Shown: positions 45,655 to 64,000 of the stretch, piece after piece
Layout of the letters: the number at the start of each line of letters is the position of its first letter
Position numbering within the stretch: the stretch's first letter is position 1
NCBI GenBank assembly: GCA_958446835.1
Contig: CAUCXT010000004.1
Coordinates: 11,770-75,769 of the forward strand
DNA from: an uncultured Eubacterium sp.
GTDB lineage: Bacteria; Bacillota; Clostridia; Lachnospirales; Lachnospiraceae
Direction: 5' to 3'
Length of the DNA: 64,000 nucleotides
Translations under genes and position numbers: made by a program
The notes under the pieces: model-generated
Seen by the model: only the letters and a program-made list of their open reading frames with translations
Databases searched by the model: none
What the model was told of the DNA's origin: nothing

Positions 45655-45656
45655 TT

Positions 45657-47362: not shown

Positions 47363-47391
47363 TTGACTTTTTTTGTCCAAAAATGTATCAT
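47363..47391 (+). promoter_or_regulatory. SigmaA-type promoter for the HPr-like gene
   Basis: -35 TTGACT (47363..47368), 17-nt spacer, -10 TATCAT (47386..47391). GGAGG RBS at 47412. ATG at 47424. Confidence 0.5.
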
Positions 47392-47423
47392 TGAGTTAAT
47401 AAAAATTATCAGGAGGTTGTACC

Positions 47424-47654: not shown

Positions 47655-47694
47655 GCATTTTATATATACCTACATAGGATACGTGTTTTCTTTA

Positions 47695-47734
47695 TAAAGG
47701 GGGTTCCGCATTGCGGAATCCCCTTTTGAATTTA
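47695..47734 (+). terminator. Rho-independent terminator after the HPr-like gene
   Basis: Stem AAGGGGGTTCCGCA / TGCGGAATCCCCTT (about 14 bp, one G-U). UUUUGAAUUU follows on the plus strand. Confidence 0.65.
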
Positions 47735-47750
47735 CATTCAATAATAATTT

Positions 47751-48929
47751 TTATTCAACCCATATTGTCTGTGTTGTCTCTATGGCTGTCTTTACAAGCT
47801 CATCTATCTTTTCCGAAAGCTTAAGCTCCGATTTTTCAATAACCTTTTTATTAGGCTTTGTTACAGGATGCTTTGCGACAAATATCGTACAGCAATCCTC
47901 ATACGGAAGTATTGATGTCTCATACGTTCCGATTTTCTCAGATATATCTATAATCTCCTGCTTGTCAAAGCCGATGAGTGGTCTGATAACAGGAAGCTCA
48001 CACACCGCATTGGTCACAAGCAGACTGTGCATTGTCTGGCTTGCCACCTGACCGATGCTCTCACCGGTCACAAGTCCAAGGCAGTCGGACTCTTTAGCAA
48101 AATGCTCCGCAATCTTCATCATATAGCGTCTCATAATTATTGTGAGCTCGTCATGTGGGCACTTCTCATATATATACAACTGAATGTCCGTAAAATTGAC
48201 TACGTGAAGATTTATCGGACCGGAGTACTGTGTTACGATTCTTGCAAGGTCGATAACCTTCTCCTTAGCCCTCTCGCTCGTATATGGAGGTGCATGGAAG
48301 TATACAGCATCAATCTTGACACCTCGCTTTGCAACCATATATCCGGCAACCGGGCTGTCAATACCTCCGGATAACAGAAGCATTGCCTTACCGTTAGTTC
48401 CGACAGGCATGCCTCCCGGTCCCGGTATAAGCTCCGTGTAAATATTTATTCTGCTTCTTATCTCAATATTTACATAGATATCCGGATTGTGGACATCCAC
48501 CGTCATTTCCGGCATTGCCTCAAGAATTTTCTCACCCATAGCCATATTGATTCCCATGGAGTCAAGCGGATAATTCTTTCTCGCGCGTCTTGCGTTGACC
48601 TTGAATGTCATCTTCTTCCCCTTGTACATGGTTCTAAGATAGTCAACAACATCCTCTGCAAGCTTGTCGAAGCCCTCATCCTTAACCTGAAGCATAGGGC
48701 ATATCCAGAGAATACCGAACACCTTCTTAAGTGCATTTATGGCATCCTCATCATCGAACTCACTTGTTCCCTCTACATATATTCTTCCGTTCTCCTTCGT
48801 CACATCAAAGGTTCCTTCAACCTTTTTGAGAGCGTGGCGTATCTGATGAACAAGCATGTCCTCAAATATATATCTGTTCTTTCCTTTTGTACCGATTTCA
48901 CCGTACTTTATCAAAAACGCTTTGTACAT
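47751..48929 (-). CDS. thiI: tRNA uracil 4-sulfurtransferase ThiI
   Basis: THUMP domain and PP-loop (LLSGGIDSPVAGYM). 392 aa. N-terminus MYKAFLIKYGEIGTKGKNR. Confidence 0.9.
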   Translation of the reverse strand: MYKAFLIKYGEIGTKGKNRYIFEDMLVHQIRHALKKVEGTFDVTKENGRIYVEGTSEFDDEDAINALKKVFGILWICPMLQVKDEGFDKLAEDVVDYLRTMYKGKKMTFKVNARRARKNYPLDSMGINMAMGEKILEAMPEMTVDVHNPDIYVNIEIRSRINIYTELIPGPGGMPVGTNGKAMLLLSGGIDSPVAGYMVAKRGVKIDAVYFHAPPYTSERAKEKVIDLARIVTQYSGPINLHVVNFTDIQLYIYEKCPHDELTIIMRRYMMKIAEHFAKESDCLGLVTGESIGQVASQTMHSLLVTNAVCELPVIRPLIGFDKQEIIDISEKIGTYETSILPYEDCCTIFVAKHPVTKPNKKVIEKSELKLSEKIDELVKTAIETTQTIWVE

Positions 48930-48953
48930 ATTTCCTCCTTCCGCGTGTGTCTT

Positions 48954-50114
48954 TTAGTGTCTTGTATATCTTCTAAGCATAGGCACCAATTCATTGAGCG
49001 CGTCAAGCGTTGCGTCAAGCTCCTCCTTGGTGTTCAGGGTGCACAGGCTGAAGCGGATGGTTGAGTCTAAGAGGTTATTCTTAACTCCGATTGCCTTTAA
49101 TGTACCTGAGAGTGCCGGCTTGTTGGATGAGCAGGCTGAGCCCGATGACACGTATATTCCCTTGTCCTCAAGGGCATGTAAGAGAACCTCACTTCTCACA
49201 TCCTCAAAGCTTATGCTTATGACATGTGGGGTGCCCTCATGTCCTCTTTTTCCGTTGAAGGTTGTTCCCGGAATTTCAAGCACCTTTTCCACAAAATACT
49301 CTTTAAGCTCATAGAGCTTTTCTATCTTTTCATCGAAGTTCTCATAGCACATCTTAGCTGCAAGAGCCATTCCTGCTATTCCCGGCACGTTCTCAGTGCC
49401 TGAGCGCATGCCTTTTTGCTGACCGCCACCGAATATTATAGGATTTATCTTTGTCTTGTCCTTGATGTACAAAAAGCCCACTCCCTTAGGTCCGTGAAGC
49501 TTATGTGAGCTCACCGACATAAGATCTATATTCTCCTTCTTAGGTATAATGCGGTACTTTCCAAACGCCTGAACCGCATCCGTGTGGAATATAATCTCCG
49601 GGTTATAATCTTTTACAATCTGTGCCGCCTCCGCTATAGGCTCAACCGCGCTCACCTCATTGTTGGCGTACATGATTGACACAATAATTGTCTCAGGGCA
49701 CAGAGCCTCCTTAAGCGCTTCAAGCTTCACACAGCCTGTAGAATCAACCGGAAGGTATGTTACCTCAAAGCCATTCTTTTCCAAAAACACGGTTGTCTCT
49801 AAGATAGCCGGGTGCTCAATCATCGTTGTGATTATATGGTTGCCACGTCTTTTATTAGCCATGGCGCAGCCTATCAGTGCTGTGTTGTCCGATTCTGTTC
49901 CACCGGATGTAAAAAGTATTTCCTTTTTATCACATTTTAGTATTGAAGCAAGAGTTTCCTTCGCCTGCGTTACATAGTGCTCCGCCTCAACGCCCTTGTT
50001 GTGCTTGGAGGACGGATTGCCATAATCATTAAGCATTATCCTGCTCATCAGCTCCACAACCTCCGGGTAAACCGCTGTTGTCGCCGAATTATCCAAATAT
50101 ATTTCCGATTTCAT
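48954..50114 (-). CDS. Cysteine desulfurase (NifS/IscS family; partner of ThiI)
   Basis: Class V aminotransferase. PLP-Lys SSHKLHGPKG. Active-site Cys loop SSGSACSS. 386 aa. Confidence 0.85.
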   Translation of the reverse strand: MKSEIYLDNSATTAVYPEVVELMSRIMLNDYGNPSSKHNKGVEAEHYVTQAKETLASILKCDKKEILFTSGGTESDNTALIGCAMANKRRGNHIITTMIEHPAILETTVFLEKNGFEVTYLPVDSTGCVKLEALKEALCPETIIVSIMYANNEVSAVEPIAEAAQIVKDYNPEIIFHTDAVQAFGKYRIIPKKENIDLMSVSSHKLHGPKGVGFLYIKDKTKINPIIFGGGQQKGMRSGTENVPGIAGMALAAKMCYENFDEKIEKLYELKEYFVEKVLEIPGTTFNGKRGHEGTPHVISISFEDVRSEVLLHALEDKGIYVSSGSACSSNKPALSGTLKAIGVKNNLLDSTIRFSLCTLNTKEELDATLDALNELVPMLRRYTRH

Positions 50115-50171
50115 ATTTTATCCCGATTCTGCTGCCTTACCGCAGCATATTTTTAAGCGTGTTCTTAAACG

Positions 50172-50927
50172 CTAGTTCTCCAATGCGTATGCAAGCATGG
50201 ACAGGAACGAAAGACCTGCTGTCTCAGTTCTGAGTATACGTTTTCCAAGCGTTATTGTATGCATGCCAAGCTTTCTTGCCGCCTCTATCTCATCGTCCTC
50301 AAAACCGCCCTCAGGTCCGATGAATACAGCCACACGGTTTCCCGGTGCAATTGAACCGACAAGTCTTCTCGTCTCAGCCATTCCGTTCTCATTCTCATAC
50401 GGAACAAAACAGATGTCGCACTCAGACGCCTCCTTGACTGCAAGTGCATAGCTCATCACAGGTCTGACCTCCGGTATAAGTGAACGCTTGCTCTGCTTTG
50501 CCGCGCTCTCGCTTATCGCATTCCATCTCGGAAGCTTAGCCGCAGCCTTCTTGTCATCAAGCTTTACAACAGAGCGCTTCATCGCAACAGGCACGATCTG
50601 TGACACCCCAAGTTCAACAGCCTTCTGGATAATCAGTTCGAGCTTATCGCTTTTAGGCAGTCCCTGATATAGTATTACCTGGCATGGAAGCTCCGTATCC
50701 GGCACATCCCTGTCAAGAATATCGAACACAACCTCACTGTCCGCATATTCGTCAAGTTCGCACATAAAGTTGCGCACTGCGTCACTCATCCGCGTGTTGC
50801 GCACGCTTATCATAACCTCGTCACCGTTTTTTAAACGTATCACATTCCTGATATGATTGAAGTCTGACCCGTCAACGTATATTTTATTGTCATTTATCTG
50901 GCTCTCTTCAACAAAAAAATGATACAT
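50172..50927 (-). CDS. rsmE: 16S rRNA (uracil1498-N3)-methyltransferase RsmE
   Basis: 251 aa. PUA-like N-domain. SPOUT C-domain (VAVFIGPEGGFEDDEI). Confidence 0.8.
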   Translation of the reverse strand: MYHFFVEESQINDNKIYVDGSDFNHIRNVIRLKNGDEVMISVRNTRMSDAVRNFMCELDEYADSEVVFDILDRDVPDTELPCQVILYQGLPKSDKLELIIQKAVELGVSQIVPVAMKRSVVKLDDKKAAAKLPRWNAISESAAKQSKRSLIPEVRPVMSYALAVKEASECDICFVPYENENGMAETRRLVGSIAPGNRVAVFIGPEGGFEDDEIEAARKLGMHTITLGKRILRTETAGLSFLSMLAYALEN

Positions 50928-50929
50928 TT

Positions 50930-51886
50930 TTATCTCCTGACAGCCGTAATTGAAACCCAGTCTCCCTGATGTGAGACATCGACAATCTCAAACTCAGGGT
51001 TCTCCATAATTGTCTTTTTTACAGCCTCTTCCTTCATATCAATGATACCCGATGTGATAAATACACCACCATGCTTGATATGCTGTGCAATCTCCTTTGA
51101 CAACGGCATAATAACATCTGCCAGAATGTTGGCTGTGACAACATCATATTTCTCATAGCCGACTTCATCCTGAACAGCCTTGTCATCTATTATGTTTCCC
51201 TGTATAACCTTGAAGATATCCGGTGAAAAACCGTTAGCCTCCATATTCTCAGCGCTCGCAGTTATGGCATTCTCATCAAGGTCGGTTCCTATAATGCTTC
51301 TCGCACCAAGCATCTTGGCTATGACGGCAAGAATACCGCTTCCTGTCCCGACATCAAGCAAGTCCGTCTCCGGTGTCACATACTTTTCGAGCTGCTTTAT
51401 GACAAGCTGTGTTGTCTCATGCATACCTGTTCCGAATGCGGTACCCGGGTCAATATTTACAACCATTCTCCCCTGCATGTCCTCAGGTACAGTCTCCCAT
51501 GTCGGCTTAATAACAATGTCCTTTACCATAAACGGCTTAAAGTACTCTTTCCAGTTGTTGACCCAGTCCTTGTCCTCCGTCTCAGACTCCTCTATCGTGC
51601 ATGCTCCGACATCGACAAAGTCCTTTAGCTCCTCAAGGCCATTTCTCACATTGTCAAGCAGCTCATCCGTGACGTCATCCTCATCAATATAAAAGCTCAC
51701 ATAGCCGATTCCCTCATCAGGAGGAAGCTCAGGAAGAATATCTATGAACATAGCCTTCGTGTCCTTATCGGAAAGCTGTACATTGTCCTCAACCTGAACA
51801 CCATCTATTCCAAGCTCGATAAGCATACCGCTGACTAAATCTTCAGCGGCAGTTGTCGTAGTTATTCTGAATTTTTTCCATTTCAT
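50930..51886 (-). CDS. prmA: Ribosomal protein L11 methyltransferase PrmA
   Basis: 318 aa. SAM motif LDVGTGSGILAV. PrmA N-terminal domain (MKWKKFRITTT...). Confidence 0.85.
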   Translation of the reverse strand: MKWKKFRITTTTAAEDLVSGMLIELGIDGVQVEDNVQLSDKDTKAMFIDILPELPPDEGIGYVSFYIDEDDVTDELLDNVRNGLEELKDFVDVGACTIEESETEDKDWVNNWKEYFKPFMVKDIVIKPTWETVPEDMQGRMVVNIDPGTAFGTGMHETTQLVIKQLEKYVTPETDLLDVGTGSGILAVIAKMLGARSIIGTDLDENAITASAENMEANGFSPDIFKVIQGNIIDDKAVQDEVGYEKYDVVTANILADVIMPLSKEIAQHIKHGGVFITSGIIDMKEEAVKKTIMENPEFEIVDVSHQGDWVSITAVRR

Positions 51887-51926
51887 AATCAGTTCTCCAA
51901 AACTTTAGTTACAATATAAGCCACAA

Positions 51927-53324
51927 TTATCCGATAAGAAACGCCTTGTATCCAAGCATTGTCTCATATACATCCGCTTTACTTACAATCTCCCATGGTG
52001 CATGCATTGAGAGAACAGGGATACCTGAATCAACAACCTCCATGCCGTACTGTGCAAGGATATATGCGATTGTTCCGCCACCGCCTACATCAACCTTGCC
52101 AAGCTCTGCTGACTGGTAATTTACCTCATGCTTCCCAAGTGTGCTTCTAAGCTCGCCTAAGAATTCTGCATTACAGTCATTGCTTCCTGACTTTCCTCTT
52201 GAACCTGTAAACTTATTAAATACCATACCTCTTCCAAGGAATGCCGCATTCTTCTTCTCGAAAGCTGCTGCATAGAGCGGGTCGAATGCAGCGCTTACAT
52301 CGGATGAGAGCATCTTGGAGTTGGTGAGTGCTCTTCTTAACTTAATCTCAGAGTAATCTCCGAGACAATTGAGTACTTCTGCAACCATATTCTCAAAGAA
52401 CTTTGAGTGCATGCCTGTTGCGCCGACACTTCCTATCTCCTCCTTGTCAACCAAGAGGCATACGCTTGTCTTGTCTACATCCTTTACGTCAAGCATAGCT
52501 ATAAGTGATGTGTATGCACATACTCTGTCATCATGACCGTAGCCCATAATCATGCTTCTGTCCATGCCATAGTCTCTTGCCGGACCTGCCGGAACTATCT
52601 CAAGCTCTGCGCTGAAGAAATCCTCCTCATCAATGCCATACTTCTCCTTGAAAATACGAAGCATTGCTGCCTTAACGCTCTCCTTTGCTTCCTTATCATC
52701 CTGCTTGCCATCTTCCTTCTCAGGTATGCTTCCGATAAGAATATCAAGATTCTCTCCTTCTACAACCTTAGCGCCCTTCTTCTCCATCTGCTCAGCAGCA
52801 AGGTGAATAAGAAGATCTGTCACTCCAAGTACAGGATCGTTTATATCCTCTCCGATAACCACATTGACTGTTCTGCCGTCCTTAAGCGCAACAACACCGT
52901 GCATTGCGAGTGGAAGTGCAACCCACTGATACTTCTTAATTCCACCATAATAATGTGTATCAAGAAGAGCCATATCCGAATCCTCATATAACGGATTCTG
53001 CTTTACATCTATTCTCGGGGAATCAATATGTGCTCCGAGAATCTTCATACCATTCTCAAGAGGCTCCTTGCCGATATTAAAGAGAGCAAGTGTCTTTCCC
53101 ATATGGCATGCATATACCTTATCACCTGTCTTTAACTTACCGTTCTCAGCAATAACCTTCTTTAAGTCTCTGTAGCCTGCGTTTTCAGCAATCTTAATTG
53201 CCTCTGCTGCGCACTCTCTTTCAGTCTTGCAATCTGAAATGTACTTCTTGTAGTCCTCACAAAATTTAAAAATCATTTCCTTTTTGGCTGCATCTGAAAC
53301 AGTCCATACATTCTTTCTTTCCAT
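51927..53324 (-). CDS. M18-family aminopeptidase
   Basis: ORF 51927..53438 trimmed to ATG 53324 (MERKNVWTVSDAAKK), which removes the overlap with scpB. M18 motifs GAHIDSPRID and YGHDDRVCAY. 465 aa. Confidence 0.8.
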   Translation of the reverse strand: MERKNVWTVSDAAKKEMIFKFCEDYKKYISDCKTERECAAEAIKIAENAGYRDLKKVIAENGKLKTGDKVYACHMGKTLALFNIGKEPLENGMKILGAHIDSPRIDVKQNPLYEDSDMALLDTHYYGGIKKYQWVALPLAMHGVVALKDGRTVNVVIGEDINDPVLGVTDLLIHLAAEQMEKKGAKVVEGENLDILIGSIPEKEDGKQDDKEAKESVKAAMLRIFKEKYGIDEEDFFSAELEIVPAGPARDYGMDRSMIMGYGHDDRVCAYTSLIAMLDVKDVDKTSVCLLVDKEEIGSVGATGMHSKFFENMVAEVLNCLGDYSEIKLRRALTNSKMLSSDVSAAFDPLYAAAFEKKNAAFLGRGMVFNKFTGSRGKSGSNDCNAEFLGELRSTLGKHEVNYQSAELGKVDVGGGGTIAYILAQYGMEVVDSGIPVLSMHAPWEIVSKADVYETMLGYKAFLIG

Positions 53325-53427
53325 TTTTACATGTACTCCTTTATTATAAAATATAAAATAATATATTTGATACTCTAATACAGTTGTTTCTGTTAAAAAT
53401 ATCTTTACCACAACCTTATTGCAGCTA

Positions 53428-54060
53428 TCAGATTCCAAGATTGATTACGTCATCATCTATTCCTGAATCTGCTTCGTTCCCGCCTGAGGCTTCCTGTTTC
53501 TGTGCTCCCTCAGTCTCACTCTCAGCTTCCTTTCTGAAATCCTCAACCTTATCCGGACTGATAACAGGAAGTTCATCCACATTTCTTACACCAAAGCTTC
53601 GAAGAAAGCTTTCCGTTGTTCCAAACAAAATAGGTCTTCCGGGAGCATCTAATCTTCCGACTTCATCTACAAGACCATACTCCACAAGCTTATTGACCGC
53701 GTGATCACAGCTTACGCCTCGTATGCCCTCTATCTCCTGCTTCGTGATAGGCTGCTTATATGCTATAATTGACAGTGTTTCCAAAAGAACATCCGTAAGT
53801 ACCTGTTTCTTAGGCTGCGCTGCAACCTTAATAAGATATTCATACGTCTCCGGCTTCGTGCACAGTTGAAAACTATCACCTAATTCTATGATTTTAATTC
53901 CTCTGTCTTCCGCCTCATATCTGTCCATAAGATTGTGTATCAACTTTACCGTTGTAGGCACATCCTGTTCAATAGCTGCTGCCAGCTTCGATGTCTCCAC
54001 CGATTCTCCCATGGTAAAGAGCACCGCTTCAATAACTGCATACATCTTCTCTATACTCAT
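53428..54060 (-). CDS. scpB: Segregation and condensation protein B
   Basis: Winged-helix pairs (AVIEAVLFTMGESV...PITKQEIEGIRGVS...). Acidic C-tail. 210 aa. Confidence 0.85.
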   Translation of the reverse strand: MSIEKMYAVIEAVLFTMGESVETSKLAAAIEQDVPTTVKLIHNLMDRYEAEDRGIKIIELGDSFQLCTKPETYEYLIKVAAQPKKQVLTDVLLETLSIIAYKQPITKQEIEGIRGVSCDHAVNKLVEYGLVDEVGRLDAPGRPILFGTTESFLRSFGVRNVDELPVISPDKVEDFRKEAESETEGAQKQEASGGNEADSGIDDDVINLGI

Positions 54061-54848
54061 GACTGTGCGTTATCCTCCCCGGCAAACATAGTTTCATCAA
54101 ATTCCGTACTCCTGACCGTTATCACAATATCGTCTTCACGGCTATCCTGCTCTACAGTGATATTTCCCATCTTGATAAGCTCAAGCACAGCAAGAAATGT
54201 CACAATCACCTGAACCTTGCTCGAAGCCGATGAAAGAAGCTCCCTGAACGAAAAATGCTCATGCTCCATGATAAAATCACGCACATACGACATCTTCTCG
54301 TCAAGACTTACTTCCTCCTTCTCGATTCTTCCGAACTTACTCCTTATCGGGTCAAGCTTATTTTCCTGACGCTTCATTATATCATCGAATATCACCCTCA
54401 GCTTTGCAAGGTTCATATCCCCCACAAGCTCCTCAAGGTTGACCGGCTGTCTATAAGCTGCCACCTCATCAGGAATGGTAGGCATTTTAAACAATGACTT
54501 ATCGGCATCCATATACATATCTTTGAGCTCATAGGACATATACTTATACATCTTATATTCCAGCAATTTTTCAACAAGTTCCGCTCTTGGGTCTTCCTCC
54601 TCGCCTTCCTCATTGACTTCCTTTGGAAGAAGCATCTTAGACTTAATATCAAGTAGTGTAGCTGCCATAACAAGAAATTCACTGACAACATTCAGGTCTT
54701 TCTTTTCCATTCTGTTGACATATTCCATATACTGCTCCGTGATAAGCACGATAGGTATATCATAAATATTAACTTTATTTTTATCAATAAGATGCAGCAA
54801 AAGGTCAAGCGGACCTTCAAACACCTCAAGTTTCACTGGAATTGCCAT
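54057..54848 (-). CDS. scpA: Segregation and condensation protein A
   Basis: MAIPVKLEVFEGPLDLLLHLI (classic ScpA N-terminus). 263 aa. Overlaps scpB by 4 nt. Confidence 0.85.
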   Translation of the reverse strand: MAIPVKLEVFEGPLDLLLHLIDKNKVNIYDIPIVLITEQYMEYVNRMEKKDLNVVSEFLVMAATLLDIKSKMLLPKEVNEEGEEEDPRAELVEKLLEYKMYKYMSYELKDMYMDADKSLFKMPTIPDEVAAYRQPVNLEELVGDMNLAKLRVIFDDIMKRQENKLDPIRSKFGRIEKEEVSLDEKMSYVRDFIMEHEHFSFRELLSSASSKVQVIVTFLAVLELIKMGNITVEQDSREDDIVITVRSTEFDETMFAGEDNAQS

Positions 54849-54926
54849 CTATTCTCTACCTCTTGTCAAGCACTCCGGGCAACATATACTCTGTGCCTAT
54901 ATTGACACAGCAACCCACATTAAATA

Positions 54927-54955
54927 ATCATACCGCAAAAAACGAACTATGACAA
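54927..54955 (-). promoter_or_regulatory. Putative sigmaA promoter for scpA-scpB
   Basis: Minus strand: -35 TTGTCA, 17-nt spacer, -10 TATGAT, about 70 nt upstream of the scpA ATG. Confidence 0.4.
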
Positions 54956-54986
54956 GTGGCAAATTAAAATCTTAAAAACTATCACT

Positions 54987-55784
54987 TCATCTGCGATGAA
55001 GCACAGCCGTCACAAGCTCCGGCGGATTATTTATGCGGACATTGATTGTGTGCGTCCCAAGCCCTCTGCCAAGCAGCATGGTACTGTTCTTCTCATGGTA
55101 CTCCCCTCCATCATAGTGTGGAAACATAGTGTAATCCGGATTGAGAACTCCGCCCACAAAAGGAAGCCTTATTATACCTCCGTGGACATGCCCTGAGAAT
55201 ACAAGGTCTGCTCCCCATGCAGCATATTGTTTAAAAAACATCGGATTATGCGCTATCAGTATTCCATAGCCATCAAGAGACATTCCAATAAGCCCTGATA
55301 TATAATCCTCCTTCATCGATGGTCTGTTCCTTATAAGAAAGAACTCCTTGCCTATCTCAAGCCCATATATGTGTATAAGCTCTCCGTTTTTCTTATAATC
55401 CACATGTCCGTTATTTAAAATCTTAACACCCGCTTTTTTAAGTGCCAGCATGAGATTATTGTATCTGTCACCATACTTTTCGGTATATACCTTGACTTTC
55501 GTCTCATGGTTTCCATTCGCAAAAAATACAGGATATCTGTCCGCTAATCTCTTTAAAAGTCCGACAACTTCATCCGAGCCATCCGAATGTTTTCGTGTGA
55601 GCAGATCACCCGCCACAATCACAATCTCCGGCTCCTGCTCAACAATCATTCCATATAACTTCTCAAGTGAAATTCCATACACATTATCGTGAAGGTCACT
55701 TAACATGGCTATCTTTATCCCGTCAAAGCTGCGCGGCAATTTTTCGGAATAAACATCATAGATTGAATTTACTATTTTTTTCAT
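54987..55784 (-). CDS. Metallophosphoesterase (calcineurin-like)
   Basis: Motifs MLSDLHD, VAGDLL, GNHE, SGHVHGG. 265 aa. Confidence 0.7.
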   Translation of the reverse strand: MKKIVNSIYDVYSEKLPRSFDGIKIAMLSDLHDNVYGISLEKLYGMIVEQEPEIVIVAGDLLTRKHSDGSDEVVGLLKRLADRYPVFFANGNHETKVKVYTEKYGDRYNNLMLALKKAGVKILNNGHVDYKKNGELIHIYGLEIGKEFFLIRNRPSMKEDYISGLIGMSLDGYGILIAHNPMFFKQYAAWGADLVFSGHVHGGIIRLPFVGGVLNPDYTMFPHYDGGEYHEKNSTMLLGRGLGTHTINVRINNPPELVTAVLHRR

Positions 55785-55899
55785 GTAATGTCCGCTTTCC
55801 TGTTTTCAATATTTATATTAAACACACTTTTTGATTGTCATTTTGTCCCAATTCGCATATACTGTATTTATAATGTCTTTTGGAAAAGGAACAAATCTT

Positions 55900-56715
55900 A
55901 TGATGAAACTCGTTTTAATGATAGCAGAAATTGTGGCAAAAGTGAAGAAGGACAAGGTAAATATGTACTCTGCGCAGTCATCATTTTTTATCATTGTGAG
56001 CTTTTTCCCTTTTATAATGCTGCTTTTGTGTATACTCAACTACACCAACATTACAGAAAGCTATCTGCTGACATTCGTGTATGAACTTTTACCTGCAAAG
56101 ACGCAGCCGCTTATCATTTCAATAATCAATGAAATATACCACAGTTCTTCTTTTACACTTCTGTCCGTGACAGCAGTGTCGGCAATATGGGCTGCCGGAA
56201 AGGGGTTCGTGTCAATCATACAGGGATTAAATGACGTATACGATACAGGCGGTGAATCCCGCAACTATTTTATTCTCCGCATACATGCAATGCTATATAC
56301 GATTGCACTTATTGTTGTCATTATTTTTTCACTGGTTCTTATGGTATTCGGAAACCGCATTTTAGAACTGATAAATCTGCATTGGCCGCTGGTCGGCTCC
56401 GCTATCCAGTTTGCACTCAGGTTCAAATTTATCATTTTTATCGGTGTGCTTACATTATTTTCTCTGGTACTCTACATTGTAGTGCCTAACCGCAAGTCAA
56501 GAATCAAATACGAATTACCGGGTGCCATTTTCACTGCACTGGGATGGAGCATCTTTTCGTATGTATTCTCCATATATGTAGATATGTCTACCGGATTTGC
56601 AATTACATACGGAAGTCTTGCAACGCTTGTATTCATAATGCTGTGGCTGTACGCATGCATGAATGTGCTCTTCATAGGCGCTGAGATAAACGCACATTTT
56701 CAGGGAATCCGGTGA
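55900..56715 (+). CDS. YihY/BrkB-family membrane protein
   Basis: ORF 55831..56715. Start chosen at ATGATG 55900 (AAAGGAAC RBS 7 nt upstream); 55873 is an alternative. 6 TM helices. YihY core (NDVYDTGGESRNYF...). Confidence 0.7.
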   Translation: MMKLVLMIAEIVAKVKKDKVNMYSAQSSFFIIVSFFPFIMLLLCILNYTNITESYLLTFVYELLPAKTQPLIISIINEIYHSSSFTLLSVTAVSAIWAAGKGFVSIIQGLNDVYDTGGESRNYFILRIHAMLYTIALIVVIIFSLVLMVFGNRILELINLHWPLVGSAIQFALRFKFIIFIGVLTLFSLVLYIVVPNRKSRIKYELPGAIFTALGWSIFSYVFSIYVDMSTGFAITYGSLATLVFIMLWLYACMNVLFIGAEINAHFQGIR

Positions 56716-56742
56716 TTGATTGTCAACCCGGGCTGCGATAGC

Positions 56743-56791
56743 ACCGGGCGAATATGCAATTTTACATATAAGGTTGCACATTCGCCCGGTT
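56743..56791. repeat. Long imperfect inverted repeat between the convergent yihY and spoIID-like genes
   Basis: ACCGGGCGAATATGCAA / TTGCACATTCGCCCGGT. 17-bp stem with one mismatch, 13-nt loop. No U tract on either strand. Confidence 0.5.
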
Positions 56792-56820
56792 AAAGCATAC
56801 ACTGCTGCAATGTCTGATTA

Positions 56821-59214
56821 TCAATATATATTCACAATATCTATATTGTTGTAGAAAAACTCCAGTATGTCATCATATCTCATTCCCCTTTTTACCATAG
56901 CCGATACTGCATTCTGGCTCATTCCTATTCCATGTCCGTATCCGCCCCCTGCTATGCGGTATCCTGTCACATTTCCCTCATCATAAAGCTCCTCGATATA
57001 TATATATGAACTTGGAAGAAAATCAAAGCTCGTTTCTGTCTGAGTATGTGTCATAATTTTATTTTCTCCCGGCCCTAACACATATCTTATATTCAATTCT
57101 CCTCGCACCATTGCATCGCCGTCCGTTCCGTGAATTATAATACTGCGCACCGCGCCCGAGGATATTCTCTGCTCTATCTCAATTGATACAAGTCTGCCGA
57201 TATAAGGATTTTCAGATGATATATATTCTCCATCCATATTTTTCATAAGTATATTTCCGGGTTCCGATAAATACCTCACCTTCAGGTACTCATTGATTCT
57301 GCTCTCAAGGTACTCTCTGTCGAGTTCAACACTCCATCTGTAAAACGGAAATTCGTAGTCGTAATCTTCTTCATTTTCGGAACATATAAAGCTTTTAAAG
57401 CGCTCATCATCCGACAAATCAATGTTCTCCCCGGATGGATTTACTGTTTTCTCCTCATATATTCCTCCCTTTTCTCCTCCCCACAATGATAAATCAGACA
57501 TATATCCACAGGATGTCGAGTAATAATACGCTGCAACAACACCGTCATCGCTTCTCATAACCTGACCGTAGGTTTCCTTGACAGCCTGTGTCGAATCGGG
57601 CTGTTCCTTGATATTGTTGTACACCTGATACCCCACGCTGTCATCCACATGTGCTCCATACGCCCTGTATGAGTTATTCATTATATGCCTGTAGGCATAG
57701 CTTCTTGCACACACCGCCTGAACCTTAAGCGCCTCCACACCGAAGCCGACAGGCATCTCGCTCGGAACAACATGGTAAAGATACTCTTCAAGTGGAAGTT
57801 CATTCACAATAACCAATCCACCGTCCTCCGCAGCTATCTCCAATATTCCGCTATAATACGGATTTCCATACGAGCGTTCAACACTCAGCACCGTTATAGT
57901 CGTATTAAGTCCGAGTGGTGCCACCTTCAACCTTCCATCAGACATATATTCGCTGTCCGGGTAAATATCTACCAGCTCTCCGCCGGCAATCTTTATAATC
58001 TCATCACCCTTTTGTATAGTAAATCCATTCTCGGATGTGAGCGTTACCCTGTCATGGAAAATCGAGCCAAAGCCTGTGTTCATTATAAGTACTCTTATAT
58101 TTTCTGCGTGAAGCTCCTTCTTTAACACTGCCGCACATATTCTGCCATCAGCTACGACAAAATCTGCAAGATCGTATCCAACCAATATATCGTTTATACT
58201 CTTTTCTTCAAGTATTCCATAATTTTTGTAGACACGGAAATTATCGGCTATCTCAACCTTACCGTAACCATCAAGTTCAACCGCTGTATTGCTCACCCTG
58301 AGCACCTTCCCGCTTATCGTGTCATTCTTAATCGTAAGCTGCCTGACTCTTCCCGACTCCATCCCGATATCCGCTATGGTATTCTGAAAAGTTTTATCAA
58401 GTCCTGATACGTCAAATTCCCTGTATACACCGGAAATATACGCTTCTATCTTTCTTCCCTGTGCACTGCACAGCCACACGTTATGATAAGTAACCGACTC
58501 GTCCACAACAGCGAGCACATAAACAATATTACTGCCTCTTGCATACACGCATATTTTTTTATCCGAATACGCATCCATATTCAACCCTTCAAAATTAAAA
58601 CACCCCTCCTCAGCAACGCAGCTCCACAGACCATACTGTCGAATCTGTGCTGAGGTCATATTAGCCGGCGTACCAACAATTGTAAGCTCACGTCTTACAA
58701 CTCCTCCCGCATTGCCATTAACCAGCACCATATAATCATATATCTTTTCAAACGACGTCTTCTTTACCCTCTTAGAAGCCTTATTTTTTTTCACGTCAAC
58801 CCCTGTATGCTCAACTATATCAGTTATATCCCAGTTTTTCTGTAAAAGATATTCCCTGAGTTCGCCATAAGTCAATGCAGAATATGCATATTCCGGCTGT
58901 ATGTACTCATCATTATCCCATGCTATTGCGGCTGTCTTTTCCAGTTCTTCCATATATTTAACATACCATTGGGAGCGGTTATCATCCTGTGATGGTGCCA
59001 TATCCGTGTCTAACAGCACCAACATCCTCGATGCCAATGCCCTGCTTATATAATTGTCCGTTTCCTTTAATTGAGCCCTTAAAGCAGCTATAAAACACCA
59101 TACCACAGCCACAGCAATCAAAAATAAAGCTATGACTTTCAGAGGATTGTGCGACCGAATACGCTCGACATAGCTCCTCTTATATCTGTGTTTTCTTCTA
59201 ACCTTATTCTCCAC
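56821..59214 (-). CDS. SpoIID/LytB-domain protein with a long N-terminal extension
   Basis: 797 aa. GTG start at 59214 with AGGGGGAG RBS 6 nt upstream. N-terminal TM anchor. C-terminal ~330 aa carry the SpoIID/LytB signature (VQAVCARSYA...GYRIAGGGYGHGIGMSQNAVSAMVKRG). The N-terminal ~450 aa have no motif recognisable to me. Confidence 0.75.
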   Translation of the reverse strand: MENKVRRKHRYKRSYVERIRSHNPLKVIALFLIAVAVVWCFIAALRAQLKETDNYISRALASRMLVLLDTDMAPSQDDNRSQWYVKYMEELEKTAAIAWDNDEYIQPEYAYSALTYGELREYLLQKNWDITDIVEHTGVDVKKNKASKRVKKTSFEKIYDYMVLVNGNAGGVVRRELTIVGTPANMTSAQIRQYGLWSCVAEEGCFNFEGLNMDAYSDKKICVYARGSNIVYVLAVVDESVTYHNVWLCSAQGRKIEAYISGVYREFDVSGLDKTFQNTIADIGMESGRVRQLTIKNDTISGKVLRVSNTAVELDGYGKVEIADNFRVYKNYGILEEKSINDILVGYDLADFVVADGRICAAVLKKELHAENIRVLIMNTGFGSIFHDRVTLTSENGFTIQKGDEIIKIAGGELVDIYPDSEYMSDGRLKVAPLGLNTTITVLSVERSYGNPYYSGILEIAAEDGGLVIVNELPLEEYLYHVVPSEMPVGFGVEALKVQAVCARSYAYRHIMNNSYRAYGAHVDDSVGYQVYNNIKEQPDSTQAVKETYGQVMRSDDGVVAAYYYSTSCGYMSDLSLWGGEKGGIYEEKTVNPSGENIDLSDDERFKSFICSENEEDYDYEFPFYRWSVELDREYLESRINEYLKVRYLSEPGNILMKNMDGEYISSENPYIGRLVSIEIEQRISSGAVRSIIIHGTDGDAMVRGELNIRYVLGPGENKIMTHTQTETSFDFLPSSYIYIEELYDEGNVTGYRIAGGGYGHGIGMSQNAVSAMVKRGMRYDDILEFFYNNIDIVNIY

Positions 59215-59285
59215 AACAAGCTCCCCCTGTCACTTCATTTCTTATGCAGGCATGACCAACTTCTGCATGCTCTATTGTATTACCG

Positions 59286-59321
59286 TAAACACAAAAGTAG
59301 ACCCCTTTCGGAGTCTACTTT
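59286..59321 (-). terminator. Rho-independent terminator inside the 392-bp intergenic region
   Basis: Minus-strand RNA AAAGUAGACUCCGAAAGGGGUCUACUUUUGUGUUUACGG. Stem of 9+ bp, loop of about 8 nt, then a U tract. Ends about 70 nt upstream of the spoIID-like start. Confidence 0.7.
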
Positions 59322-59562
59322 ATTTGAAAATTAATAGATTCTTATTCATATCCCAAAATGCCGTTTCCTACAGTTTTGACGCCCTAGCTCAAGCTAGGTG
59401 GGCGACCTCACATAAGCTTCAGCCATCCACTGCAAAGGAGGCTCGACATCCACTTATAAATGTTGGAATCCCATGAACGTAAATGTAGGTTCAAAAAAGT
59501 AAGATTGTCGTACACCCCAGGACTAAATCCATTAATCATCTGTTACTATTATATCTTGAACT
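59290..59562 (-). ncRNA. Candidate ~270-nt small RNA or cis-regulatory leader, bounded by a sigmaA promoter and an intrinsic terminator
   Basis: Promoter -10 at 59569..59574, terminator at 59286..59321. No ORF longer than 15 codons. Several internal hairpins (CCTAGCTTGAGCTAGG, a repeated AGTGGATG, GAGCCTCC...GAGGTCGCC). No tmRNA, SRP or RNase P motifs. Confidence 0.35.
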
Positions 59563-59568
59563 GGATAA

Positions 59569-59597
59569 AGTATACCACATCAATGAATATTTAGCAA
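59569..59597 (-). promoter_or_regulatory. SigmaA-type promoter with extended -10
   Basis: Minus strand: -35 TTGCTA, 17-nt spacer, -10 TGgTATACT. Lies 10-38 nt downstream of the stop of the 59607..61487 gene. Confidence 0.5.
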
Positions 59598-59606
59598 GAT
59601 TTTTCT

Positions 59607-61487
59607 TTACTTGCGATACAATATATAGTATGTGAGCGAACATGCCAATCCTTCTGACACAGTATATGGTCCATCTATATTATAACCCTCTCCAAGTGCC
59701 AGCAAAGCATCCTCTGTATGATTCCTGCTCCACGGTATTTCCACATATATGGCTCTATGGTCTAAGAAAACGACCTCCTCCATATAATAAAGACGCTGTA
59801 TAGCATGTAGGTTGACCTCTCCATCCGCTTTTTTGTAGGTACGCACCCTGTTAACAGAATCCCATAAAAGATCCGGATTTACAAACTGATCCTCCGTCTG
59901 TTCCACAAAGGATGACACTATCCTGTACCATCCCTGATAGTCAACTCTGTCAAGCATCTTGTCAACCGCTTTATCCATGTATGTATACTGATAATTATAG
60001 TACCCGAAATCGCCAACATTAGAATCCATATATTCCAGCTCATTTCTTGTCGCCGCTGTCCAGACCATTGGAATTTTACCCGTGTTGACTCTCGTAAATA
60101 CCGTGAGTGAAACCGGATCTATTGTAACAAACGTCTCCACAAATGCAAGCAGTCCCATTGCTGCCGATACACAGATATATGCTTTTTTCGCTTCAAGTGC
60201 CCTTATAACCATTACCATCACTATGAGCAGGAAAAGAGTATCCGACAAAATATTATATCTTGTCTGCTTGGCCTCCAAAAAGAATAAAAGGAAGAATGTG
60301 TATACAAAATACTGTATCAGTATGAATGAAAATACCCTTACATCTATTTCCTTGTTCTTTCGCACTGACGGAACCACAATACATATAACAATACACGCAA
60401 CCAATATCAGAATCCACAGCCATGAAAAATTTAACACGAAGAGCTGACGCACCTTCATCATAAAATGAGCACTGTTGAACTGAAAGTTCATAGTTCCCTC
60501 GCCACCAAGCTTCAGAACATCCTTAATCTTATTTCCGCCCCACATAGGAATATTGATTATTTTAATAAAAGCTGCTACACACGCAATCAGAAAAATTCCA
60601 AATCCAATATAGTGTCCCGGCTTAAGTTTTTTAATGAAGTCTCTTATTCCACCGCTTTTCTTAATATATGCCGCAATCTCATATATGACAATAAAAAACA
60701 GCATGGAAAAAGCCATCATTGCTCCGGTCTCTTTACACGTTCCGAGCATTATAAGCCAGAAAAACATCAATATATACTTTCGTGTAAGATATGCGCACAA
60801 TACATATATAAACAATACCGCTAAAGGATATTCCATATGTATAGTCGTGGACAAACCAAGAAAAATCGGATGAATCGACACAATAAAAGCTGCTATCGCA
60901 CTAACGTAATCCTTTTTCTTTGGAAATATCTTCTTAAATATATAGAATAGACATACCGCAGCAACTGCTCCCATTACCATATACGAATACTGGAACCCCA
61001 TGGCATTAGGCACATTAAGGAGCTGCCCCAACATAGTTACAAAAATAAAGCCGTGACTGATATGTCCGAAAATAAAGCCGCTTTTAAATGTATCAAACAA
61101 AATTCCATTCGGATAATATGCTATTCTATCCATCTGTGTATAATAAAGCTGTGCATCCGACCACTGGTATGTGCCAATCATATTAACTCTTATGACAATG
61201 CTCACCACAAAAATAATCACAGAGCAGACCATTGGCGAACCCGGTTTCCCAATCTTTTTCAACTTGAACGCACATATAAGCGTAACTGCAAGCAGAACTG
61301 CGAAAACAATAGGATTGATTATATTACAAGTATGCACAAACTTTAAAACATCATCCGTCCACTCCTGCCTGTAATATGAAAACGGTGCAATCGCAAACAA
61401 CCACACAAACAAAGCCATAATGACTGACAACTGTGCTGTAACGTTATACAGAGTATCAAGCGATTTTTTCTTTTTCATGTTATACAT
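59607..61487 (-). CDS. Large polytopic membrane protein (12+ TM) with a C-terminal extracytoplasmic domain; possible GT-C-type glycosyltransferase
   Basis: ORF 59607..61544. Start probably ATG 61487 or 61481 (MYNMKKKK, AAGGGAG upstream). Hydrophobic core followed by a ~170-aa soluble C-domain (WTAATRNELEYMDSNVGDFGYYNYQ...). No diagnostic motif. Confidence 0.5.
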   Translation of the reverse strand: MYNMKKKKSLDTLYNVTAQLSVIMALFVWLFAIAPFSYYRQEWTDDVLKFVHTCNIINPIVFAVLLAVTLICAFKLKKIGKPGSPMVCSVIIFVVSIVIRVNMIGTYQWSDAQLYYTQMDRIAYYPNGILFDTFKSGFIFGHISHGFIFVTMLGQLLNVPNAMGFQYSYMVMGAVAAVCLFYIFKKIFPKKKDYVSAIAAFIVSIHPIFLGLSTTIHMEYPLAVLFIYVLCAYLTRKYILMFFWLIMLGTCKETGAMMAFSMLFFIVIYEIAAYIKKSGGIRDFIKKLKPGHYIGFGIFLIACVAAFIKIINIPMWGGNKIKDVLKLGGEGTMNFQFNSAHFMMKVRQLFVLNFSWLWILILVACIVICIVVPSVRKNKEIDVRVFSFILIQYFVYTFFLLFFLEAKQTRYNILSDTLFLLIVMVMVIRALEAKKAYICVSAAMGLLAFVETFVTIDPVSLTVFTRVNTGKIPMVWTAATRNELEYMDSNVGDFGYYNYQYTYMDKAVDKMLDRVDYQGWYRIVSSFVEQTEDQFVNPDLLWDSVNRVRTYKKADGEVNLHAIQRLYYMEEVVFLDHRAIYVEIPWSRNHTEDALLALGEGYNIDGPYTVSEGLACSLTYYILYRK

Positions 61488-61577
61488 ATACTCCCTTCGT
61501 CTATCACATTTAGAATAAGACTTTGTAAAGAATATCATACCCATTACTGTTTGTCAAATTAAGCAGCCTGCCATTTT

Positions 61578-61614
61578 ATACGAAAAAGCCGGGTGCGAAT
61601 TATTCGCACCCGGC
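61578..61614 (-). terminator. Rho-independent terminator of pckA
   Basis: Perfect 12-bp stem GCCGGGTGCGAA / TTCGCACCCGGC with a 3-nt loop. UUUUUCGUAUAAAAU follows on the minus-strand RNA. Starts 45 nt after the pckA stop. Confidence 0.8.
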
Positions 61615-61658
61615 ATAATCTGCATTATATTCCTATTCTTTTGAACAGAAAATTCTGA

Positions 61659-63263
61659 TTAGAGCTGAGGACCAGCAGCAACTAATGCCTTACCAGCATC
61701 ATTTCCCTCATACTTAGCGAAGTTCTTGATGAATCTTCCAGCTAAGTCAACTGCCTTCTTCTCCCACTCAGAAGCATCAGCGTAAGTATCTCTTGGATCA
61801 AGAATACCTGTATCAACGCCCTCAAGCTCAGTAGGAACCTCGAAGTTGAAGTAAGGAATCTTCTTTGTAGGAACCTTGTTGATTGCTCCGCTAAGGATGC
61901 CGTCGATGATACCACGAGTATCCTTAATGGAAATTCTCTTGCCGGTTCCGTTCCAGCCTGTATTTACAAGGTAAGCCTTAGCTCCGCTCTTCTCCATCTT
62001 CTTAACAAGCTCCTCAGCATACTTAGTAGGATGAAGCTCAAGGAAAGCCTGTCCGAAGCAAGCTGAGAATGTAGGTGTAGGCTCTGTGATACCTCTCTCT
62101 GTACCGGCAAGCTTAGCAGTAAATCCTGAAAGGAAGTAATACTGTGTCTGTGCCTCAGTAAGAATAGATACTGGAGGAAGTACACCAAATGCATCTGCTG
62201 AAAGGAAGATTACGTTCTTTGCAGCAGGAGCTGAAGAGATTGGACGTACAATGTTCTTGATATGATCAATAGGATAAGATACACGAGTATTCTCTGTTAC
62301 GCTCTTATCGTCGAAATCAATCTTGCCGTTTGCATCAACAGTAACGTTCTCAAGAAGAGCGTTTCTCTTGATTGCATTGTAGATATCAGGCTCAGACTCC
62401 TTGTCAAGTCCGATAACCTTAGCGTAGCAGCCTCCCTCGAAGTTGAATACGCCGTTGTCATCCCAGCCGTGCTCGTCATCACCGATGAGGAGTCTCTTAG
62501 GGTCTGTAGAAAGAGTAGTCTTACCTGTTCCTGAAAGACCGAAGAAGATAGCTGTGTTCTCGCCGTTCATATCTGTGTTAGCTGAGCAGTGCATAGAAGC
62601 AATACCCTTGAGTGGAAGGTAGTAGTTCATCATTGAGAACATACCCTTCTTCATCTCTCCGCCGTACCATGTGTTAACGATAACCTGCTCACGGCTTGTG
62701 ATGTTGAACATAACTGCTGTCTCAGAGTTTAATCCTAACTCTTTGTAGTTCTCAACTTTTGCCTTAGAAGCATTGTAAACAACGAAATCTGGCTCGAAGT
62801 TCTCTAATTCTTCTGCTGTAGGTTTGATGAACATATTTGTTACAAAGTGAGCCTGCCAAGCAACCTCAACGATGAAACGAACTGCCATTCTTGTATCCTT
62901 GTTAGCTCCGCAGAAAGCATCTACTACGAAAAGTCTCTTGTTAGAGAGCTCCTTCTTAGCGATATCCTTAACTGCTGCCCAAGTCTCCTCTGTCATAGGA
63001 TGGTTATCGTTCTTGTACTCATCGGATGTCCACCAAACTGTGTCCTTGGAGTTCTTATCAACAACGATATACTTATCCTTAGGTGAACGTCCTGTGTAGA
63101 TACCTGTCATAACATTGACAGCGCCAAGCTCGCTCTCCTTACCTACTTCATAGCCCTCGTTAGAAGACTTAGTCTCCTCCTCGAATAAGAACTCATAAGA
63201 AGGATTGTAGACAACTTCTGTAGTACCTGTGATGCCATACTTGCTTAAATCGATCTTTGCCAT
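61659..63263 (-). CDS. pckA: Phosphoenolpyruvate carboxykinase (ATP)
   Basis: ORF trimmed to ATG 63263 ([13 protein letters not shown]) with AAGAGG RBS. Kinase-1a loop [19 protein letters not shown] fold. 534 aa. Confidence 0.95.
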
Positions 63264-63432
63264 CTTACATAAACCTCTTTTCTTATAATGTATCAGTAGA
63301 AATGGATTAACCACATTCTTTTGCTATTATACATAATCACTTTTCAAAAAGCAACAGTATAATCATAGTGTTTAGGTAAATTTTAGAAATAATACAGGAA
63401 AAAATTTACTGTTTTTATACCGTTATCCTATA

Positions 63433-64000
63433 TTAAACCAATATACCCTTGATATATTCTGCTATCTCAGCATTTTTGCAGTCCTTGAAGAAATACTCTG
63501 CAAAATGCTCGCCGCTAACTGCTCCCTTTAAGAGTTCTTTATCAATATTCTTGAGAATGTAGAGCATATCTGTGTGTGTTACCTTCTTAACCTCGTCTAA
63601 TATCTTCTTGTTGCGCTGCTCCGGCACAACTCTCTCCTTAGGATAACCACCGCCCGGCTCCTGCTCAAAAAGCTTCTCAAAGATGTATGTAAGGTTGAGC
63701 TCTGCGCCCCAGCCAAAGCCCTTTGCGAAAGGAAGAGCCACTGCATTGCCTGCATTAATCTGGCTGAACATAAATGCGTCTGAAGGATCAACAATATGTC
63801 CGCATAATACACCCGGGAATGAATTGAGCGCAAGCATAGCGCCCTCACCTGTTCCACAGCCTGTCACAACGAAATCCGCTGCTCCGCTGTTAAGAAGAAT
63901 GGCTGCTAAAATACCACACTGTACATAAGTAAGCTGTGCAGCATCATCCGCTGAATACATTCCATAGTTGACAACCTCATATCCCTTAGCGTCCGCAACC
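63433..64000 (-). CDS. RpiB/LacA/LacB-family sugar-phosphate isomerase (ribose-5-phosphate isomerase B-like). Partial: the N-terminus lies beyond the window end.
   Basis: Frame stays open upstream of the first in-window Met (...VADAKGYEVVNYG|MYSADD), matching the RpiB N-terminal region. GCGTGEG motif. The tail is longer than canonical RpiB. Confidence 0.75.
   Translation of the reverse strand, partial: VADAKGYEVVNYGMYSADDAAQLTYVQCGILAAILLNSGAADFVVTGCGTGEGAMLALNSFPGVLCGHIVDPSDAFMFSQINAGNAVALPFAKGFGWGAELNLTYIFEKLFEQEPGGGYPKERVVPEQRNKKILDEVKKVTHTDMLYILKNIDKELLKGAVSGEHFAEYFFKDCKNAEIAEYIKGILV

Follow-up and report, generated by a model that had tools for sequence, protein, structure and literature searches.

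What is encoded in a gap of several hundred base pairs that separates two open reading frames (ORFs) of the same strand and is itself free of genes? The gap considered here is a 392-bp interval on the minus strand of a 64-kb stretch of DNA, which is analysed as a whole and is referred to as the window. An initial annotation of the window described the interval as a self-contained transcription unit of about 270 nt with its own promoter and terminator, and offered two readings of it: an independent small RNA, or a long leader with a terminator/antiterminator switch that controls the gene downstream. It reported no match to 6S RNA and suggested that the element may be an undescribed RNA. The anatomy it describes is for the most part real, and its description of the surroundings holds. 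The flanking ORFs end at 59607 and start at 59214, which leaves the 392 bp between them, and they code for a membrane protein on the upstream side and a SpoIID/LytB protein on the downstream side:

59607..61544, minus strand: upstream ORF, coding for 645 aa with about 12 hydrophobic segments; no Pfam family matches
59215..59606: the gene-free interval
56821..59214, minus strand: downstream ORF, coding for 797 aa with a single membrane anchor at the N terminus and a SpoIID domain (Pfam)
55831..56715: a YihY/BrkB-family gene, just past the SpoIID-like gene in the window

The DNA stems from an uncultured bacterium of the gut that belongs to the Clostridia. Contigs that are identical or nearly identical to this one are human-gut metagenome assemblies, and the closest assembled genomes carry the labels Eubacteriales, Eubacterium sp. 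and Lachnospiraceae.

The identity of the element is given by a scan against Rfam, a check that the initial annotation had itself proposed. The scan covered the whole 64 kb and returned a single match at the gathering threshold, to RF00013 (6S/SsrS), which lies within the gap:

59346..59526, minus strand: core of the 6S RNA (181 nt), with the limits of the Rfam RF00013 match

The match runs from 59526 to 59346 and covers model positions 1-187 of 187, with a score of 67.9 bits (gathering score 46.4; E 2.8e-11 window-wide). The earlier statement that the region does not match 6S is contradicted by this full-length match. Other RNA families gave no match at E<=1 in 59150..59700 and none at E<=0.01 window-wide, and neither tRNA nor tmRNA genes were found within the 64-kb window. 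The lengths can be set beside the roughly 180-210 nt of 6S RNAs: the core has 181 nt, and an extended rod that we propose below has 215 nt. We therefore hold, with a probability of about 0.96, that the gap is the site of the 6S RNA gene, ssrS, which is predicted from the sequence to stand alone with a promoter of the housekeeping-sigma type. The element is an already described RNA, an ordinary ssrS, and the idea of an undescribed element gives way to a full-length member of the very family that had been excluded. This correction is the chief value of the analysis: the supposed undescribed RNA is a standard 6S RNA that any Rfam-based annotation can call, and its identity makes a discovery effort on the element unwarranted.

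Conservation of the region in related genomes, on which the initial annotation had made its proposal depend, is evident. Loci were gathered through orthologues of the SpoIID-like protein, with identities from 96% down to 39%. A search of assembled-genome contigs with this protein gave six loci, three of them usable; more distant relatives were reached through the contigs that encode protein homologues and through a scan of metagenome DNA for a sequence motif. In 10 distinct relatives RF00013 matches at full length, with 66-77 bits, directly upstream of the SpoIID-like gene and in the same orientation, so that 6S RNA occupies the equivalent position in all 10. The cores of the window and these 10 relatives, chosen through the neighbouring protein, form an alignment (A1) with a mean identity of 86% (n=11). 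Their RNAalifold consensus has the canonical rod form of 6S RNA, in which the closing stem and two short helices are followed by a central bubble and then by an apical stem. The bubble has an open 5' strand of 18 nt and carries a 6-bp hairpin in its 3' strand:

59473..59490, minus strand: 5' strand of the central bubble, ACCUACAUUUACGUUCAU, unpaired in the consensus
59380..59399, minus strand: 3' strand of the central bubble, which includes the 6-bp hairpin

The consensus is well supported by the pattern of substitutions. In A1, 98.3% of cells pair, compared with 39-48% after the partners have been shifted by 1-3 columns (slid controls); compensatory changes occur at five pairs. Because selection through a protein could bias such a set, metagenome contigs were also scanned for the invariant core motif TTTTGAACCTACATT-N7-10-GGGATTCC, which yielded at least 120 contigs. 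A covariance model built from A1 found a full-length 6S RNA in 100 of the 100 contigs searched, among the matches listed, at 92-200 bits; nhmmer started from the same alignment was weaker, with 24 full-length matches in the 120 loci listed. The 71 distinct sequences among the matches listed make up an alignment (A3) that was selected by motif and fitted to the model, which somewhat inflates its pairing statistics: 92.9% of cells pair (39-48% in the slid controls), 20 of 52 pairs show changes on both sides, cells changed on both sides number 325 as against 28-67 in the slid controls, and the observed values are not attained in any of 500 shuffles. A1, which is free of both influences and independent, agrees in direction with the larger set. 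The covariation that the initial annotation had wished to see is thus present, with 20 compensatory pairs among these 71 sequences. A by-product of the search is the collection itself, which comprises 71 distinct 6S sequences from gut Clostridia, among the matches listed, with strong covariation.

Folding of a single sequence is less informative. The core alone folds modestly better than its shuffles (z -2.11; 7 of 200 shuffles equal it), and its minimum-energy fold closes the bubble with alternative pairs, so that the central bubble is visible only in the comparative consensus. On its 3' side the bubble carries the hairpin CCUAGC-UUGA-GCUAGG, at 59398..59382. This helix (helix 9) is paired in 100% of the 71 distinct sequences among the matches listed, and includes one compensatory pair, G-C to A-U.

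The RNA appears to be framed by transcription signals of its own, as the initial annotation had proposed. The elements considered are:

59569..59597, minus strand: predicted sigmaA-type promoter, which recurs in relatives
59548..59553, minus strand: second -10-like element, TATAAT, recognized by its sequence and by positional homology to the promoter of relative L012
59288..59321, minus strand: intrinsic terminator, with a 12-bp stem and GAAA loop (59321..59294) and a UGUGUUU tail

The extended -10 promoter, TTGCTA-17-TGgTATACT, is found at 59597..59569 as had been claimed, with the -35 box TTGCTA at 59597..59592, a spacer of 17 nt, the TG at 59577..59576 and the -10 box TATACT at 59574..59569. 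The terminator that had been read from the sequence is likewise there, as AAAGTAGACTCC-GAAA-GGGGTCTACTTT followed by TGTGTTT. A consensus scan of the AT-rich 1-kb region finds promoter-like matches at a frequency not above chance (6, with 3.0 +/- 1.7 expected), and one terminator-like match where 0.5 is expected in the same region. Both signals are credible because they recur at the equivalent relative position in relatives. The promoter of the window is also found in L003, L004, L005, L009 and L011, and among the matches listed a promoter scoring at least 9 is present in 49 of 50 lineage representatives, almost always as TTGnnn-17-TATAAT. In these representatives, among the matches listed, 2-31 nt usually lie between the -10 box and the 6S core, as compared with 42 nt in the clade of the window. 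In each of the 10 relatives a hairpin with a U-run lies 3' of 6S, and so does a terminator in most metagenome lineages among the matches listed. The terminator stems of L012, L014, L016, L017 and L018 are unrelated in sequence, so that the structure is kept without its sequence. Transcription is expected to start near 59562/59561, and with the U-run ending near 59288 we infer a primary transcript of about 275 nt, in good agreement with the 270 nt estimated initially.

The second -10-like element, at 59553..59548, is homologous in position to the sole good promoter of L012, TTGAAT-18-TGaTATAAT. The window sequence has no acceptable -35 box for it. A start 7-8 nt past this TATAAT, at 59541/59540, would fall just where the extended closing stem described next has its base. 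The element may be a second promoter, or merely a conserved part of the leader.

Pairing of 59540..59525 with 59341..59326 lengthens the closing stem by about 15 bp relative to the Rfam model, and the full RNA can be proposed as follows:

59326..59540, minus strand: proposed full 6S rod, 215 nt, made up of the core and the stem extension of about 15 bp

The extension is found in six members of one clade, namely the window, L003, L004, L005, L009 and L011. Within it, one pair alternates between A-U and G-C (three sequences each), and three further pairs show G-U/A-U or G-C/G-U changes. The 215-nt stretch 59540..59326 is modelled as a single rod of -64.4 kcal/mol. An extension of the closing stem that is specific to the clade of the window is a second by-product of the comparison. 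By analogy with characterized 6S RNAs, the mature form is probably the rod of about 215 nt, either alone or still joined to the terminator hairpin. Some 20 nt of 5' leader would be trimmed off, as in B. subtilis pre-6S-1, where the leader is 11 nt long and is removed by RNase J1 (PMC10578484). B. subtilis 6S-2 is 211 nt long with its putative terminator hairpin included (PMC10578484). Leader trimming and the presence of several processed forms are normal among Firmicute 6S RNAs (PMC10578484, PMC3879012).

6S RNAs imitate an open promoter and bind the RNA polymerase holoenzyme of the housekeeping type; they are released when a product RNA is transcribed from the 5' strand of the bubble into the neighbouring helix (PMC3299989, PMC8876501). 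In the window, the block UUUUGAACCUACAUU (59496..59482) spans the 5' strand of the bubble and the adjoining helix strand, and is presumed, by analogy with B. subtilis 6S-1, to be the template for a product RNA. Its positions T31-T45 (U31-U45) are invariant or nearly so in the 11 sequences picked through the neighbouring protein. The complement of the block reads 5'-AAAUGUAGGUUCAAAAAAG, and the block would template 5'-..AUGUAGGUUCAAAAAAG, in which a GG and an A-run are present. As hallmarks of Firmicute product RNAs, a GG occupies positions 4/5 or 5/6 and an AA positions 9/10, and the base immediately before the start is an A (PMC8414754). The predicted product RNA shows these hallmarks only approximately, the AA 9/10 register being found for only one of two candidate starts. 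In B. subtilis 6S-1 the product RNA starts at nt 40 (PMC8876501). Here the start should be at 6S nt 42 or 43 (59485/59484 in the window), and the candidate 5' ends are predicted to be 5'-GUAGGUUC or 5'-UGUAGGUUC, antisense to 59496..59482.

Membership in the family suggests how the RNA would act. It would imitate an open promoter and sit in the active site of the sigmaA RNA polymerase holoenzyme, and housekeeping transcription would be damped in this way at nutrient depletion. Upon a nutrient upshift, the polymerase would use the invariant UUUUGAACCUAC as template, starting at about 6S nt 42-43 (59485/59484), and the resulting product RNA would be short, about 5'-(U)GUAGGUUCAAAAAAG-3'. Its synthesis would unzip the adjacent helix and refold the RNA, and the enzyme would be freed.

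Comparison with known 6S RNAs places the element closest to the B. subtilis 6S-1 type. Like 6S-1 (BsrA), it has a rod of closing stem, central bubble and apical stem, and a preformed short hairpin on the 3' side of the bubble (PMC8876501). The preformed hairpin points to the 6S-1 type rather than the E. coli type. The 5' strand of the bubble is open in both, with a start likely at nt 42-43 here as compared with nt 40 in 6S-1; the product RNA predicted here would contain a GG and then an A-run; and a sigmaA promoter is predicted for the RNA too, with leader trimming expected. Unlike 6S-1, the RNA has a longer predicted leader, of about 20 nt as far as the rod and about 35 nt as far as the Rfam core, and in the clade of the window about 15 extra base pairs in the closing stem. 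The neighbourhoods also differ: 6S-1 and the 6S genes of lactic acid bacteria adjoin rarA (PMC8414754), whereas here the neighbour is the SpoIID-like gene. B. subtilis 6S-2 (BsrB) resembles the element in length, with 211 nt compared with the 215 nt of the proposed rod, and a putative terminator hairpin is part of 6S-2; the hairpin at 59321..59294 may likewise stay on the mature RNA. The central bubble of 6S-2 is less structured (PMC8876501), in contrast to the conserved 3'-side hairpin here. The 6S RNA of Clostridium acetobutylicum (sCAC1377) is highly expressed and gives several processed bands (PMC3879012). It also belongs to the class Clostridia and has its own promoter and a Rho-independent terminator (PMC3879012), and comes from a different family of Clostridia; it is likened here by its description. 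The layout of leader and terminator in the window predicts processed bands as in C. acetobutylicum.

E. coli SsrS is a member of the same Rfam family, and open-promoter mimicry is presumed for the RNA of the window too. As in E. coli ssrS-ygfA, a co-oriented protein gene lies downstream and the linkage is conserved. The gene downstream of E. coli ssrS encodes a folate enzyme, whereas here it encodes an unrelated protein with a SpoIID/LytB domain. E. coli ssrS relies on Rho-dependent termination and processing, in contrast to the strong intrinsic terminator found here. The two promoter-like elements of the window may lie in tandem, as is reported for P1 and P2 of E. coli (PMC534622, PMC3012964). 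The 3'-side hairpin of E. coli 6S, which has 9 bp, forms only after product-RNA synthesis (PMC8876501), whereas the hairpin here is preformed.

The conserved linkage with the SpoIID-like gene raises the question of whether the RNA does more than serve as a 6S RNA. The order of 6S followed by the SpoIID-like gene is found in 10 of the 11 loci reached through the protein. In the remaining one, L020, where the SpoIID-domain gene has 38% identity and is preceded by an agr operon, 6S is absent from the upstream gap, so that the linkage has exceptions. Clustering of the motif-selected contigs by 6S sequence at 95% identity gives 54 clusters, among the matches listed. Among these matches, 29 of 34 assessable clusters have a co-oriented SpoIID-like gene no more than 3.5 kb downstream and the other 5 lack it; the start of the ORF with this similarity lies within about 125 nt of 6S in some 38 of 60 contigs; and in about 20 contigs 1.2-1.8 kb separate 6S from the ORF that bears similarity to SpoIID. 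In the five exceptions among the matches listed, a gene for a YihY/BrkB-type membrane protein comes next after 6S. The genes upstream of 6S differ among loci. Judged by gene order, 6S borders an old block that consists of 6S, the SpoIID-like gene, BrkB, metallophosphatase, scpA and scpB. Synteny of monocistronic 6S genes at the level of the family is known from lactic acid bacteria (PMC8414754), and for this reason the order here is most simply regarded as inherited. None of the papers searched links 6S RNA with SpoIID.

The linkage could also have a functional basis. If the terminator were leaky, the 6S promoter would feed transcripts of the SpoIID-like gene, and 6S would form an operon with it. 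Such an arrangement would supplement the 6S identity rather than replace it; it resembles E. coli ssrS-ygfA, and would make expression of a cell-wall or sporulation enzyme depend in part on the 6S promoter. The position of 6S, directly upstream and co-oriented in 10 of the 11 protein-reached loci, is in keeping with an operon, as is the retention of the order in 29 of 34 motif-reached 6S lineages (among the matches listed) while the upstream genes vary. There are precedents as well: termination at E. coli ssrS is reported to influence ygfA expression (PMC3012964), and 6S-1 influences the timing of sporulation in Bacillus (PMC7726162, PMC3624594). Against these stands the strong hairpin with its U-run (12 bp in the window), which intervenes between the two genes here and likewise in most lineages. 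Past the terminator, moreover, a conserved -10-like motif could belong to a promoter of the gene itself:

59274..59281, minus strand: -10-like motif AATACAAT, between the terminator and the start codon of the SpoIID-like gene

As a raw count, 10 of 11 loci have the form AATA[C/G/T]A[A/C]T in this interval, 16-82 nt ahead of the start codon. A convincing -35 box, of the sigmaE or sigmaA kind, was not found for AATACAAT, which may, as a weak inference from its sequence and place, be a candidate promoter of the SpoIID-like gene that lies outside the RNA. The separation of about 1.2-1.8 kb in some 20 loci (among the matches listed) also speaks against read-through, and the BrkB/YihY gene that follows 6S in the five exceptions fits plain retention of an old order, as does the normality of family-level synteny for monocistronic 6S genes (PMC8414754). 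We consider a leaky operon unlikely on balance. The wider proposal, that 6S and the SpoIID/LytB-domain gene make up a functional unit in a large group of gut Clostridia, is slightly more doubtful still. Were it true, the 6S terminator would be read through in a regulated manner, or a joint transcript would be processed, and the growth-phase-controlled 6S promoter would thereby be tied to an enzyme of cell-wall remodelling or sporulation; the unit would be the Firmicute equivalent of E. coli ssrS-ygfA, with sporulation as an added connection.

The other readings would deny the element its role as 6S RNA. As a cis-acting leader or attenuator, it would be a 5' UTR of about 270 nt on the mRNA of the SpoIID-like gene, with the terminator switched by an antiterminator fold, a ligand, a tRNA or a protein. 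A co-oriented gene does follow the terminator, and the linkage is conserved. The body of the RNA, however, is a full-length 6S, and riboswitch, T-box and leader families have no match at E<=1 in 59150..59700. The best complementarity that upstream sequence shows to either terminator arm amounts to 7-8 nt, G-U pairs included, and lies inside 6S helices. The terminator stems differ fully among relatives, with no matching change in a near-invariant 6S body, and five lineages among the matches listed hold 6S without a SpoIID-like gene. An attenuator is unsupported because a family match, an antiterminator and conservation of the terminator sequence are all absent and because of the five lineages that lack SpoIID, and we regard it as very improbable. 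Of the two readings offered initially, the independent small RNA is thus borne out by its own promoter and terminator, and the switched leader is not. Even less probable, to the point of being negligible, is a gene for a small protein. The initial annotation had stated that there is no ORF of 16 codons or more; there are in fact a 43-codon ATG ORF on the transcribed strand and three ORFs of 44-74 codons on the opposite one, and none of the four ORFs that overlap the element, on either strand, has a Pfam match. Translation of the 43-codon ORF (59539..59408) would give a product beginning MINGFSPGVYDNL, and the ORF is intact in the window, L003 and L004. No Shine-Dalgarno sequence precedes its ATG, which is lost in L005 and L011; L005 and L009 have a 1-nt indel that leads to a stop once 28 codons have been read, despite high nucleotide conservation; and substitutions track base-pairing, not codon structure. 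The ORF was rejected as a gene and is taken to be a by-product of the RNA sequence:

59408..59539, minus strand: spurious 43-codon ORF that overlaps 6S; not a gene

With the element read as 6S RNA, the order of 6S, SpoIID-like gene and BrkB offers a possible synteny anchor for the recognition of divergent 6S genes in uncultured bacteria.

The order of a 6S RNA gene followed, in the same orientation, by a gene for a SpoIID/LytB-domain protein (window 56821..59540) is widely kept in gut Clostridia, both at relatives' loci (L003-L018) and on metagenome contigs carrying the 6S core motif (L022-L141). Of the 11 loci collected by way of the protein, 10 have this order. Searching with the RNA motif instead gave, among the matches listed, 34 6S lineages that could be assessed (clusters at 95% identity with enough flanking DNA), and 29 of them have it. 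A literature search found no paper connecting 6S RNA with SpoIID. Gene content on the upstream side of 6S differs between loci, unlike the conserved downstream SpoIID-like gene. The upstream gene of the window (59607..61544) encodes a 645-aa polytopic membrane protein with about 12 hydrophobic segments and no Pfam family; among the relatives, only the closest ones (L001, L011) carry it ahead of 6S.

Five 6S lineages without the SpoIID-like gene, among the matches listed, have a gene directly after 6S that was assigned by eye from the sequences to the YihY/BrkB-type membrane proteins. Beyond it lie pheS and pheT, or a peptidase M18 gene. The window has a BrkB gene as well, just past the SpoIID-like gene and convergent with it:

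BrkB-type genes (coordinates on the five L contigs given with 6S on the + strand)
L064:320-1222, directly after 6S
L044:4148-4990, directly after 6S
L137:2716-3645, directly after 6S
L027:1782-2741, directly after 6S
L097:4220-5194, directly after 6S
window 55831..56715, just past the SpoIID-like gene, convergent with it

Since BrkB adjoins 6S in the five SpoIID-less lineages and lies past the SpoIID-like gene in the window, it looks as if 6S and BrkB formed an older neighbourhood that the SpoIID-like gene was either inserted into or lost from.

The closing stem of the window 6S is about 15 bp longer than in the Rfam model, with 59525..59540 pairing with 59326..59341, and includes one compensatory switch, from A-U to G-C. 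The extension was found only in the close clade of the window; in more distant relatives the core runs straight into the terminator.

Two further promoter-like elements flank the 6S gene:

window 59548..59553, minus strand, a second TATAAT, 16 nt 3' of the main -10 box, without a -35 box
window 59274..59281, the -10-like motif AATACAAT, after the 6S terminator and ahead of the start codon of the SpoIID-like gene

The window 6S gene may have tandem promoters, because the second TATAAT is the positional homologue of the sole promoter in the relative L012, and because transcription initiated there would begin with the first base of the extended stem. The arrangement would then resemble that of E. 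coli ssrS, which has tandem promoters. The stretch 59598..59609 of the window consists of the stop codon of the membrane-protein gene (59609..59607) and the 9 nt that separate it from the 6S -35 box, with no terminator in between. Transcription of the membrane-protein gene probably continues into 6S; such transcripts would need processing, or would end at the 6S terminator.

The sigmaE -10 consensus is CATACAnT, which the candidate motif AATACAAT resembles in sequence. The relatives' form is AATA[C/G/T]A[A/C]T, and the motif occurs at 10 of 11 loci, as counted without a shuffled control. No clear -35 box was found for it.

At the distant locus L020 (1-3000), an agr-like quorum-sensing cluster (LytTR response regulator, histidine kinase, AgrB and a 42-aa ORF) lies ahead of a SpoIID-domain gene of 38% identity. 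The 440-bp gap upstream of the SpoIID-domain gene holds no 6S; at about 2597..2700 it has a long, AT-rich stretch resembling a hairpin, with only sub-threshold Rfam matches, to miRNA and sRNA families. In the 64-kb window there are no tRNA genes, and Rfam recognises no RNA other than 6S. The minus strand holds 51 of the 53 large ORFs of window 1..64000 (180 aa or more, not overlapping a longer ORF).
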